Positions 5,964-11,440 of a DNA stretch of 64,000 nucleotides are shown one piece after another. The notes beneath the pieces are model-generated. The model saw only the letters and a program-made list of their open reading frames with translations, was not told the origin of the DNA and ran no database searches. Numbering within the stretch: position 1 is the stretch's first letter; every line of letters starts with the position of its first letter. The stretch lies in the NCBI RefSeq assembly GCF_003018255.1, contig NZ_CP027440.1; one strand, 5' to 3'. The DNA comes from Escherichia coli (GTDB taxonomy: Bacteria; Pseudomonadota; Gammaproteobacteria; Enterobacterales; Enterobacteriaceae). The translations under genes and the position numbers were made by a program.

Positions 5964-6971
5964 ATGACTGATAAAACCATTGCGTTTTCGCTACTCGATC
6001 TGGCCCCCATTCCCGAAGGCTCTTCAGCGCGGGAAGCGTTCTCCCACTCTCTCGACCTCGCCCGTCTGGCTGAAAAGCGCGGCTATCATCGCTACTGGCT
6101 GGCGGAACACCACAATATGACCGGCATTGCCAGTGCTGCAACATCAGTTTTGATTGGCTATCTGGCGGCGAATACCACTACGCTGCATCTGGGGTCTGGC
6201 GGCGTGATGTTGCCTAACCACTCACCATTGGTGATCGCCGAACAGTTCGGCACGCTTAATACGCTCTATCCGGGGCGAATCGATTTGGGGCTGGGTCGTG
6301 CGCCGGGTAGTGACCAGCGAACCATGATGGCACTACGTCGTCATATGAGCGGTGATATTGATAATTTCCCCCGCGATGTCGCGGAGCTGGTGGACTGGTT
6401 TGACGCCCGCGATCCCAATCCGCATGTGCGCCCGGTACCAGGCTATGGCGAGAAAATCCCCGTGTGGTTGTTAGGCTCCAGCCTTTACAGCGCGCAACTG
6501 GCGGCGCAGCTTGGTCTGCCGTTTGCGTTTGCCTCACACTTCGCGCCGGATATGTTGTTCCAGGCGCTGCATCTTTATCGCAGCAACTTCAAACCGTCGG
6601 CACGACTGGAAAAACCATACGCGATGGTGTGCATCAATATTATCGCTGCCGACAGCAACCGCGACGCTGAATTTCTGTTTACCTCAATGCAGCAAGCCTT
6701 TGTGAAACTACGCCGTGGCGAAACCGGACAACTACCGCCACCGATTCAAAATATGGATCAGTTCTGGTCACCGTCTGAGCAGTATGGCGTGCAGCAGGCG
6801 CTGAGTATGTCGTTGGTAGGTGATAAAGCGAAAGTGCGTCATGGCTTGCAGTCGATCCTGCGCGAAACCGACGCCGATGAGATTATGGTTAACGGGCAGA
6901 TTTTCGATCACCAGGCACGCCTGCATTCGTTTGAACTGGCGATGGATGTGAAGGAAGAGTTGTTGGGATAG
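5964..6971 (+). CDS. yhbW: Luciferase-like (flavin-dependent) monooxygenase YhbW
   Basis: Track ORF, 335 aa, [19 protein letters not shown]... Confidence 0.92.
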
Positions 6972-6984
6972 TATGTCTTAACGC

Positions 6985-7088
6985 GGGAAGCCTTATCCGA
7001 GCTGGCAACGCTGTCCTACGTAGACCTGATAAGCGAAGCGCATCAGGCATTGTGGAGGCAGCAGAAATGTCGGATAAGGCACCGCTGA
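6985..7088. repeat. REP/BIME cluster (about three REP-like palindromic units)
   Basis: Units resembling the REP consensus: gccttatccgagctggcaa, tagacctgataagcgaagcgcatcaggca, gcagaaatgtcggataaggcacc; fills the convergent yhbW/mtr gap. Confidence 0.6.
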
Positions 7089-8333
7089 TTACTGATACAC
7101 CGGCAGCAAATTAAAGCTCGATAAAATATGCACCAGTGCGTTGCCGACGCCAAATACCAGAATCAGCGCAATCATCGGCTTGCCGCCCCAGACGCGGAAT
7201 TTCGGGCTGCCAAAGCGTTTACGCGATGCGCGGGCCAACAGCGCCGGTACAATTGCCGCCCAGATAGTAGCTGCTAAGCCAGCATAACCAATGGCATACA
7301 GGAATCCGTTCGGAAATAGCAGACCACCCACAACAGGCGGGGCAAAGGTCAGCAACGCCGTTTTAAAGCGGCCCAGGGCAGAGTCGTCAAAACCAAACAG
7401 ATCTGCCAGATAGTCAAACAAACCCAGCGTTACGCCGAGGAACGAACTTGCTACCGCAAAGTTTGAGAACACGACCAGCAGAAGGTCCAGGCTACGGCTG
7501 TTCAGCACGCCGCTTAATGCCTGTACCAGCACATCAATATTACCGCCCTTCTCGGCGATGCCGATAAACTCCGGACGAGGGATGTTGCCCATCGTCGCCA
7601 GCAACCAGATGGTATACAGCGCCAGCGCCATCAGCGTACCGTACACCAGGCATTTCACGATGGTTTTCGGATCTTTGCCGTAATACTTCATCAGGCTCGG
7701 CACGTTACCGTGATAACCAAACGATGCCAGACAGAATGGCAGCGTCATCAGCAGATACGGTGCATAAGACGCATTGCTTTCGGCGACGTTGAACAATGTC
7801 GCAGGCTGCACATGCCCCAGTAGGCTACCGAAGGTGAGGAAGAAGGTAATGACTTTCGCCCCCAGCACAATCGCCGTCATGCGGCTGACGGCTTTAGTGC
7901 TCAACCACACCACAAACGCCACCAGCAGTGCAAAACCAAAACCCGCTGCCCGTGCCGGGACGTTCAATGACATCTCTGCGAAGGTATGATGCAGAATCGA
8001 ACCGCTGGCAGAAATATAGGCATAGGTCAGGATATAGAGCACAAAGGCAATGGAAATGCCGTTGACCACGTTCCAGCCTTTGCCCAGCAAATCTTTGGTG
8101 ATGGTGTCAAAGCTCGAACCGATTCGGTAATTCAGGTTAGCTTCCAGAATCATCAAGCCGGAATGCAGCATACAGAACCAGGTAAAGATCAGCGCCGCCA
8201 TTGACCAGAAGAACCACGCCCCGGACATGACCACAGGCAGAGAAAACATCCCTGCGCCAATAATGGTGCCGCCGATAATCACCACGCCGCCAAGCAGCGA
8301 CGGTGACGTTTGGGTGGTGGTTAGTGTTGCCAT
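7089..8333 (-). CDS. mtr: Tryptophan-specific permease Mtr (aromatic amino acid/H+ symporter)
   Basis: Track ORF, 414 aa, [34 protein letters not shown]... Confidence 0.96.
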
Positions 8334-8379
8334 GAGGGCTTCTCTCCAGTGAAAAATAGTGCGACTGCGTTGTTATGCA

Positions 8380-8405
8380 TTGCACTGTACCAGTACACGA
8401 GTACA
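8380..8405 (-). promoter_or_regulatory. Candidate TrpR operator in mtr promoter
   Basis: Minus strand reads GTACTCGTGTACTGGTAC (tandem GTACT half-sites) roughly 40-60 nt upstream of mtr ATG; position approximate. Confidence 0.35.
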
Positions 8406-8412
8406 AAAGACA

Positions 8413-8444
8413 GAAAAAAAGCCCCGATGGTAAAAATCGGGGCT
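8413..8444 (-). terminator. Intrinsic terminator downstream of deaD
   Basis: agccccgat..atcggggct stem followed on the minus strand by a U7 run. Confidence 0.7.
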
Positions 8445-8486
8445 GTATATATTATTTTACAGATTGTGTTCGCTGTTCAGCGATGA

Positions 8487-10376
8487 TTACGCATCACCAC
8501 CGAAACGACGACGACCGGTAGAGTCATCACGACGCGGAGCGCGGCCTTCACGACGTTCGCCGCTAAAACGACGACCATCACCACGACCACCTTCACGGCG
8601 TTCACCGCTGAAGTTACGACCGCCTTCACGACGTTCGCCACTGAAACCACGACCACCGCCACGACGCTCACCGCCAGTATGCGGCTGTGCATCGCCCAGT
8701 AACTGCATGTTCATCGGCTTGTTGAGAATGCGAGTGCGTGTAAAGTGTTGCAGCACTTCACCCGGCATACCTTTCGGCAGTTCGATGGTGGAGTGAGAAG
8801 CAAACAGCTTGATGTTACCAATGTAACGGCTGCTGATGTCGCCTTCGTTAGCAATCGCACCAACGATATGACGAACTTCAACACCATCATCGCGGCCCAC
8901 TTCAATGCGGTACAGCTGCATATCGCCAACATCACGACGTTCACGACGCGGACGATCTTCACGGTCACCACGCGGGCCACGGTCGTTACGATCGCGCGGA
9001 CCACGGTCATCACGGTCACGGAATTCACGTTTCGGACGCATCGGCGCATCTGGCGGAACAATCAGAGTACGTTCACCCTGTGCCATTTTCAGCAGTGCGG
9101 CGGCCAGAGTTTCGAGATCCAGCTCTTCACCTTCTGCCGTCGGCTGAATTTTGCTCAGCAGTGCACGGTATTGATCCAGATCGCTGCTTTCCAGCTGCTG
9201 CTGTACTTTAGCGGCGAATTTTTCCAGACGACGTTTGCCCAGCAGTTCTGCGTTCGGCAGTTCAACTTCCGGAATGGTCAGCTTCATGGTGCGTTCAATG
9301 TTACGCAGCAGACGACGCTCACGGTTCTCAACGAACAGCAGCGCACGGCCAGCACGGCCCGCACGACCAGTACGACCGATACGGTGAACGTAAGACTCAG
9401 AATCCATCGGGATATCGTAGTTAACTACCAGGCTGATACGCTCAACGTCCAGGCCACGGGCCGCAACGTCGGTCGCAATCAGGATGTCCAGACGACCATC
9501 TTTCAGTCGTTCCAGTGTCTGCTCACGCAGCGCCTGGTTCATGTCACCGTTCAGCGCGGCGCTGTTGTAGCCGTTACGCTCAAGGGCTTCTGCCACTTCC
9601 AGAGTCGCGTTTTTGGTACGAACGAAGATAATCGCCGCATCAAAATCTTCCGCTTCCAGGAAACGTACCAGTGCTTCGTTTTTACGCATACCCCAGACAG
9701 TCCAGTAGCTCTGGCTGATGTCAGGACGGGTAGTCACGCTGGACTGAATGCGCACTTCCTGCGGCTCTTTCATAAAGCGGCGGGTAATGCGACGAATCGC
9801 TTCCGGCATGGTTGCAGAGAACAGAGCGGTCTGATGACCTTCCGGGATCTGCGCCATAATAGTTTCAACGTCTTCGATGAAGCCCATGCGCAGCATTTCG
9901 TCAGCTTCATCCAGAACCAGACCGCTCAGTTTAGAAAGGTCCAGAGTGCCACGTTTCAGGTGATCCAGCAGACGGCCCGGAGTACCGACAACGATCTGCG
10001 GCCCCTGACGCAGGGCGCGTAATTGCACGTCATAACGCTGGCCGCCGTACAGGGCAACCACGTTTACGCCGCGCATGTGTTTAGAGAAATCCGTCATTGC
10101 CTCAGCAACCTGTACCGCCAGTTCGCGGGTCGGTGCCAACACCAGAATCTGTGGTGCTTTCAGCTCAGGATCAAGATTCTGCAGCAGAGGTAAAGAGAAT
10201 GCTGCAGTTTTTCCGCTCCCCGTCTGGGCCATACCCAGAACGTCGCGGCCATTCAGCAGATGTGGAATACACTCTGCCTGAATTGGAGATGGTTTTTCGT
10301 AACCCAGATCGTTAAGGGCTTCAAGGATAGGAGCCTTCAGGCCCAGATCTGCAAAAGTGGTTTCGAATTCAGCCAT
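8487..10376 (-). CDS. deaD: DEAD-box ATP-dependent RNA helicase DeaD (CsdA)
   Basis: Track ORF 8487..10442 (TTG) trimmed to ATG 10376 ([21 protein letters not shown]...), 629 aa; DEAD and SAT motifs; RG-rich C-terminal tail. Confidence 0.96.
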
Positions 10377-10449
10377 GTAGTACGTGTGCCTCAAAATTAA
10401 TGGCGGCCAGTCTACATAACTCATCATGAAATTGATCAGCAATTTTCAT
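10369..10449 (-). CDS. yrbN: Small protein YrbN (26 aa) in deaD leader
   Basis: Own translation: atg aaa att gct gat caa ... cat ggc tga = [26 protein letters not shown]; its stop overlaps the deaD ATG (ATGGCTGA). Confidence 0.6.
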
Positions 10450-10555
10450 TGAAAAGTGTGAACCGGCTCAAAGTAGGTGTATTAACGAACAACAACGCCC
10501 TCACCCGTTAAGGTGATGGCAATCAAAAAAGATTACGGGCTGATGTGTACGTCAG

Positions 10556-11440
10556 CTATTGCTGGTCCGATTCTGCCAGGTCATCTTGGTCCTGGCCCAG
10601 GAGCGATAATTCCAACAATGCGTATCGGTGCTCAACAAAGTTATGAACGTTGTTGGCAACCGCCAGTTTGAACAGTGCCGTGGCGCTGTCCAAATCCCCC
10701 AGACTTAGGTAGTACTTACCTAAATAGAAGTTGGTTTCACTGAGATGCTCAGCGAGCGAGGTGTTATCCGTTGCGTCCGCCTTGAGCCTTTCCATTAACG
10801 TTTGTTCGCTAATGTTGCCCAGGTAGAACTCGACAATGTTCCATCCCCACTGTTCCTTATCCGATTTTTCGAAGTGCTGTTTCAACACTTCTTTAGCCTG
10901 CTTCTCATCGAGCTTCTGCTCGGCGAGATAAAGCCACAGACTACGGAAAGGATCATTGGGATCGTCTTGATAAAACGCCAGCAGATCATCTTGCGCTAAC
11001 TTGTCACGACCGCCGTAATATAATGCGATCCCGCGATTCAAGTGCGCGTAGTTGTAAGTTGGATCAAGCTCAAGTACAGAATCAAACGCTTCATAGGCAG
11101 CATCAAAATTGCCTGCCTGCGTTAAATATATGCCTAAGTAATTGAATACTTCAGGCATATCCGGTCGGATTGCCAGCGCTTGCGAAAAATCGTTACGCGC
11201 TAATGCCCTCAGACCGAGACTATCATACAACACTCCGCGCTCATATAAAAGCTGTGCGCGTTCGTCATCGGTTAAAGCCCGACTGGCAAGGATTTGTTCC
11301 ATACGTGCCAGAATCACTTCCTGCTGTAAAGTCGGTTGCAATGGTACCGCGAGGACTTCACTTTTACGCCAGGAAGTATTACTGCATCCTGCAAGCGTAA
11401 GTGCTGTCGCAACGAAACACCAGCGCAAAAAAGGCTTCAT
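10556..11440 (-). CDS. nlpI: TPR-repeat outer-membrane lipoprotein NlpI
   Basis: Track ORF, 294 aa; lipobox LTLAGC; TPR repeats. Confidence 0.95.

Follow-up and report, generated by a model that had tools for sequence, protein, structure and literature searches.

The window analysed here is a 64,000-nt stretch of the Escherichia coli contig NZ_CP027440.1 (assembly GCF_003018255.1), in which deaD (csdA) lies on the minus strand, with mtr downstream of it and yhbW nearby (Table 1). The TAA stop codon of deaD occupies 8487-8489 on the minus strand. RefSeq homologues begin at the ATG at 10376 (MAEFETTF), yielding a protein of 629 residues; a mechanical ORF prolongs the frame upstream through 10377-10442 (minus strand) to a TTG at 10442 (651 aa). 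The translated product matched all five Pfam families of a DeaD/CsdA orthologue in the order DEAD (residues 30-196), Helicase_C (232-340), DeaD_dimer (374-443), DbpA RNA-binding domain (RBD; 489-558) and DeaD_C (568-629). Two PDB structures of E. coli DeaD also matched the window protein (5GI4, E = 3.5e-25; 5B88, E = 2.6e-50). When a 361-nt query spanning the tail was searched against 5,426 complete E. coli genomes, 5,425 matched at 96-99.7% identity, and among the matches listed all were annotated in RefSeq as deaD with mtr adjacent downstream. It is near-certain that the window ORF is deaD/csdA, the gene of a DEAD-box RNA helicase of the cold-shock response. Given the Pfam architecture and the RefSeq deaD locus, the repeat tract at its 3' end is therefore the curated DeaD_C tail of this gene.

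Table 1. Coordinates of deaD, its C-terminal repeat tract and neighbouring features in the window
Feature	Position	Strand	Remarks
yhbW	5964..6971	+	Window ORF list
mtr	7089..8333	-	Window ORF list; downstream of deaD
deaD intrinsic terminator, predicted	8420..8444	-	9-bp hairpin, 6 GC, then TTTTTT
deaD (csdA) CDS	8487..10376	-	629 aa plus stop; homologous RefSeq CDSs are 1890 nt
DeaD_C tail, residues 568-629	8490..8675	-	Pfam PF12343, 45.7 bits (cutoff 23.3)
Unit A, degenerate, 10 residues	8646..8675	-	Coding-strand unit alignment
Unit B, 11 residues	8613..8645	-	K-12 sequence differs; REGG duplicated here in the +12 nt allele
Unit C, 11 residues	8580..8612	-	Tandem Repeats Finder and unit alignment
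Spacer DGRR, 12 nt, between units C and D	8568..8579	-	Makes the C-to-D spacing 45 nt
Unit D, shortened, FSGERREGR	8541..8567	-	18-nt exact repeat GGCGAACGTCGTGAAGGC in common with unit B
Terminal segment	8490..8540	-	APRRDD duplicated in Klebsiella-like orthologues
Antisense mechanical ORF, 110 aa, P/R/S-rich, spurious	8464..8796	+	ORF list; unannotated in the RefSeq rows shown
+1-frame mechanical ORF, 71 aa, V-rich, spurious	8477..8692	-	ORF list

The arms of the predicted deaD terminator, AGCCCCGAT...ATCGGGGCT, lie between deaD and mtr, and a plus-strand scan scored the same hairpin. An Rfam scan of 8300-10800 returned as its sole match a sub-threshold anti-hemB hit over this terminator (18 bits against 49.5, E = 0.49), which we ascribe to chance, and did not find an RNA element in the deaD repeat. 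Further downstream, REP/BIME-like palindromic units (gccttatccgagctggca... and gcctgataagcgaagcgcatcaggca) were read by eye in the intergenic DNA (6975-7085) that separates yhbW from the mtr 3' end.

The match to PF12343, which Pfam names "DeaD helicase C-terminal disordered region", covered profile positions 1-62 of 62 at the extreme C-terminus of the protein. Compared with the DeaD_C region of E. coli CsdA/DeaD, the tail is encoded by the same gene in the same neighbourhood, matches the full model and shows no essential difference; relative to K-12, the window allele has Ser for Gly in the first clear unit (unit B). The last 71 residues comprise 20 G, 19 R, 7 E and 5 D, and 45 of their 71 codons are CGT, GGT, GGC, GAA or CGC. 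Solved DeaD fragments are without the tail, as 5GI4 ends at about residue 445 and 5B88 spans about residues 481-564. The DeaD tail is an already known feature, and the census of E. coli alleles described below is a small descriptive addition.

We then analyzed the internal structure of the tail. Tandem Repeats Finder reported a period-33 array at 8580-8674 (2.9 copies, 74% matches, score 120), and a repeat search detected a 44-nt family at 8544, 8589 and 8622, with identities of 75-89% and spacings of 45 and 33. In self-comparison, the best off-diagonal score was 29 (offset 78), against 11.6 +/- 2.1 with a maximum of 21 in 500 codon shuffles, none of which reached the observed value. The octamer FSGERREG occurs exactly three times in the tail; among 5000 residue shuffles, a 10-mer present twice or an 8-mer present three times was obtained in about 1-3. 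The copies are arranged head to tail, their period is a multiple of 3, and their similarity exceeds what composition provides. These results indicate that the DeaD tail is a true internal tandem repeat of imperfect 11-residue units. An earlier reading of this DNA, made from the sequence only, had placed RG-rich repeats in the last 200 bp of deaD, and its coordinates were right (tail at 8490-8675, stop at 8487-8489); the internal repeat that it expected from self-comparison was detected, with a score above those of all 500 codon shuffles. Its description of a near-perfect 10-residue motif in three copies held in part. FSGERREG is indeed present three times, but the 10-mer itself occurs exactly only twice and the third copy is divergent, so that "near-perfect" is slightly generous; the first copy differs in K-12 as well.

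The repetitive DNA leaves several reading frames open. Across 8490-8700, two of the three frames on each strand (four of six) are stop-free, and the other two contain 4 and 11 stops. When the repeat was erased by codon shuffling, each alternative frame was still open in 18-52% of trials and all four together in 3.9%. Because the frames survive loss of the repeat so often, and because the plus strand across the tail is only 14.5% T, composition must be co-responsible: codon composition (CGT/GGT/GGC/GAA) contributes at least as much to the open frames as repetition does. Heavy use of these four codons renders the coding strand A-poor and the opposite strand T-poor; stops are therefore few in several frames, in which meaningless ORFs arise. 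Repetition adds to the openness because a stop-free junction is copied along with each unit.

Two mechanical ORFs, 8464..8796 (plus strand) and 8477..8692 (minus strand), overlap the tract, and we considered whether one or both are real genes on whose account the repeat is conserved. Both are open and have a possible initiation codon, and the +1 frame is stop-free up to a point within 10 nt of the deaD stop. However, codon shuffles of equal composition keep such frames open 18-52% of the time, and the predicted products are monotonous V-rich or P/R/S-rich strings. In searches that matched 5,425 genomes, only deaD was named at the match in the RefSeq rows shown. Moreover, 8 of the 10 variable sites in the tail among E. 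coli alleles fall at third-codon positions of deaD, and indels between species keep the deaD frame. The RefSeq annotation, the third-position pattern of the SNPs and the shuffle results led us to reject overlapping genes, which we regard as very improbable. Instead, the tail is translated as part of DeaD and is under purifying selection in the deaD frame. The sequence-only reading had dismissed both ORFs as spurious products of open frames; both appear in the ORF list, only deaD is annotated in the RefSeq rows shown, and we concur.

Many public fragment proteins begin as the DeaD RG tail and then switch to the V-rich frame (...VVKAVV...SVVMRNHR). Such frame-switched fragments include P0007, P0008, P0031, P0043, P0044, P0053-P0055, P0057, P0059, P0075 and P0085; P0044 later switches back to the RG frame. 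In draft assemblies, an erroneous shift of frame leads to continued reading here because the frame of 8477..8692 (minus strand) meets no stop codon until within 10 nt of the true stop. For annotation hygiene, this means that stop-poor frames yield both spurious ORFs and chimeric V-rich DeaD C-termini in public protein collections.

A second low-complexity repeat is present in deaD, in the R/D-rich linker between the dimerization domain and the RBD (residues 447-485; 8922-9038, minus strand). It comprises a 24-nt direct repeat at 8971 and 8995 and a 32-nt pair at 8937 and 8988, and it also gives alternative-frame ORFs at 8711..9061 (minus strand) and 8905..9147 (plus strand). This linker is missing from PDB 5GI4 and 5B88 and carries indels between species, and fragment P0001 is a frameshifted reading through it.

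Length alleles of the tail were first spotted as odd record spans among BLAST matches; the records were retrieved and translated, and the alleles were then counted by junction queries of 54-68 nt against the 5,426 complete E. coli genomes. Five of these queries were counted at E <= 1e-18, and the +12 junction query was run at the default E limit and counted by at least 80% coverage. Six variant alleles were detected (Table 2), all in frame and all keeping the native C-terminus. At least 186 of the 5,426 genomes (3.4%) have a non-canonical tail length, a lower bound because only already discovered junctions were searched and other alleles may exist; in the remaining ~96.6%, none of the six variant junctions was found. 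In addition, the changes -15 and -33 occur together on one tail in an E. coli-like metagenome contig. A query with one unit duplicated returned no +33 allele among its top matches in the E. coli genomes. Accordingly, the earlier suggestion that repeat number can vary between strains is borne out, although the variants are rare; species differ too, as described below.

Table 2. Length alleles of the DeaD tail among 5,426 complete E. coli genomes
Change	Protein length	Event	Genomes
+12 nt	633 aa	Tandem duplication of REGG within unit B	158, including strain 042
-78 nt	603 aa	Deletion that joins unit B to unit D	21, on at least two SNP backgrounds
-66 nt	607 aa	Deletion of units B and C	3, including two O145:H28 strains
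-132 nt	585 aa	Entire array lost, 19-residue remnant	2
-33 nt	618 aa	Deletion of one unit	1
-12 nt	625 aa	GFGG lost	1

Three of the deletions could be placed on direct repeats. The break point of the -78 allele is the 18-nt exact direct repeat GGCGAACGTCGTGAAGGC, and that of the -132 allele is an 8-nt exact direct repeat, GCGTCGTG. The break point of the -66 allele is a 6-nt direct repeat when compared with K-12, and 12 nt (GGTGGTCGTGGT) in the window allele.

Frameshift errors are frequent in this very part of public fragment proteins, and the -33 and -12 alleles are singletons, so we asked whether errors in assembling or sequencing repetitive DNA could have produced the length alleles. This is very unlikely. 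Many laboratories contributed the 158 complete genomes with the +12 allele, among them that of the reference strain 042, and the 21 genomes with the -78 allele represent at least two SNP backgrounds. The -66 and -132 alleles are present in three genomes (two of them O145:H28) and in two isolates, respectively. All alleles are in frame, and the array of about 130 nt lies well inside a read length. The polymorphism in length between DeaD C-termini of different strains, which the sequence-only reading had proposed to look for by alignment, is thus present alongside the internal repeat. As a separate observation, tail codon 18 of E. coli SHP24 carries a singleton CGT-to-TGT change (GGERCGGGRG), which replaces Arg by Cys within unit A and is either a rare variant or a sequencing error.

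Seven length classes in one species, with break points within direct repeats, also raise the question of whether the tract is a contingency (phase-variable) locus that switches DeaD or varies rapidly. By contrast with a homopolymer or short simple repeat, however, the units measure 33 or 45 nt and are imperfect (74-89% identity), and every allele differs by a multiple of 3 and retains the native C-terminus. About 96.6% of the 5,426 genomes have no detected variant junction. The common variants look clonal: at least 30 of the genomes listed share the +12 allele with 100% identity over 260 nt, and the -78 allele is identical in 16 genomes. With seven classes that all remain in frame, at least 186 of 5,426 genomes non-canonical and most variants clonal, we rejected phase variation as highly improbable. 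Most E. coli variants instead look clonally inherited, as alleles of lineages rather than products of a hypervariable tract.

To compare tails between species, we searched proteins with the last 148 residues. The matches were fragment clusters of at most 256 aa, with no full-length orthologues among them, and were usable for tails. Fragment proteins that retain the C-terminus have tails of about 50-89 residues past the ...NMQLLGDA anchor, with 1-5 GERR units, and other Enterobacterales have more or fewer repeat units. Klebsiella-like tails contain three units of 10 residues followed by G or S, together with a duplicated APRRDD, and Serratia/Yersinia-like and Proteus-like tails are increasingly degenerate, still rich in R/G/E/D. 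The REGG duplication of the E. coli +12 allele was seen in one orthologue as well. Variation of this kind is usual for a disordered region, in which composition and approximate length are constrained and the exact sequence is free.

The RGG and RRF motifs previously noted in the tail were found as one RGG (in RRGGGRG), one di-RG (RGGGRG) and two RRF; the motifs as such are real, but a classical RGG box is unsupported. Thandapani et al. 2013 reportedly define di- and tri-RGG motifs by at least two RGG tripeptides with 0-4 residues between them. By this definition, we rejected a classical RGG box, as the tail has a single RGG and only a di-RG. The tract is therefore better described as an R/G/E mixed-charge repeat.

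Eukaryotic RGG/RG motifs, such as those in the tails of LAF-1, Ded1 and Dbp2, resemble the DeaD tail in being an Arg/Gly-rich low-complexity region of an RNA helicase, and they are associated with RNA binding and phase separation; DeaD likewise forms condensates. The DeaD tail differs in having one RGG, one di-RG and regularly interspersed Glu and Phe, and no arginine methylation system is known in E. coli. With a single RGG, and 7 E and 5 D set against the 19 R of the last 71 residues, the analogy with an RGG box is therefore imperfect.

The C-tails of Mss116p and CYT-19 share with DeaD a flexible, net-positive tail placed after a C-terminal extension of the DEAD-box core. They have no sequence homology to the DeaD tail, which is a mixed-charge R/G/E repeat following a dimerization domain and an RRM-like RBD. 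In PMC3590231, which cites Mallam et al. 2011, the basic unstructured tails of Mss116p and CYT-19 are proposed to act as non-specific tethers that hold the helicases to structured RNA and assist annealing. Among bacterial helicases, RhlE has C-terminal intrinsically disordered regions (IDRs) that are also basic DEAD-box helicase tails and diverge in length and sequence among homologues; the fast-evolving basic IDR of RhlE modulates RNA binding and phase separation (PMC11260450). RhlE belongs to another helicase subfamily and has neither a DbpA-type RBD nor the 10-residue unit of DeaD. By analogy, the mode of action of the DeaD tail is probably that of RG-rich IDRs and of the basic tails found on other DEAD-box chaperones.

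The long, locally basic C-terminal extension of CsdA has been proposed as the seat of an ATP-independent annealing activity (PMC3590231). In PMC11850223, which draws on Xu et al. 2017, constructs with or without the RBD and the C-terminal tail are reported to differ in ATPase and unwinding, and the RBD is summarized as the main RNA anchor. DeaD phase-separates in vitro in a salt- and concentration-dependent manner and marks condensates in cells (PMC12758526). From this literature, residues 568-629 are probably a flexible, multivalent and basic RNA-binding appendage that promotes condensates.

Taken together, the 3' end of deaD very probably encodes the DeaD_C disordered tail as a short array of 11-residue units subject to in-frame turnover, with a role as an RNA tether that the literature suggests. 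The array arose through tandem duplication, and units or part-units are still gained and lost by repeat-mediated indels, through slippage at short direct repeats or through unequal recombination between them, with only in-frame products seen. The net-positive, flexible tail would then serve as a non-specific RNA tether beside the structured DbpA-like RNA-binding domain and, judging from the literature, would support RNA binding, strand annealing and the formation of DeaD condensates. Copy number can drift because function would rest on composition and approximate length rather than on exact sequence.

The tail-length alleles include +12, carried by about 3% of E. coli, -78, found in a recurrent clinical lineage, -66, found in O145:H28, and -132, which lacks the array; it is unlikely that they are functional and not neutral. 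If they were, tail valency would tune RNA tethering or condensates and thereby cold growth, ribosome assembly or the antibiotic persistence that was lately reported to be linked to DeaD condensates, and lineages would differ in such traits because of repeat number. The current understanding of DeaD is unchanged by these findings. The allelic series of 585, 603, 607, 618, 625, 629 and 633 aa provides ready tail-valency variants with which to address the role of DeaD_C in RNA binding and condensates, and the DeaD tail is a clean bacterial case of a putatively disordered region whose repeats turn over in frame.
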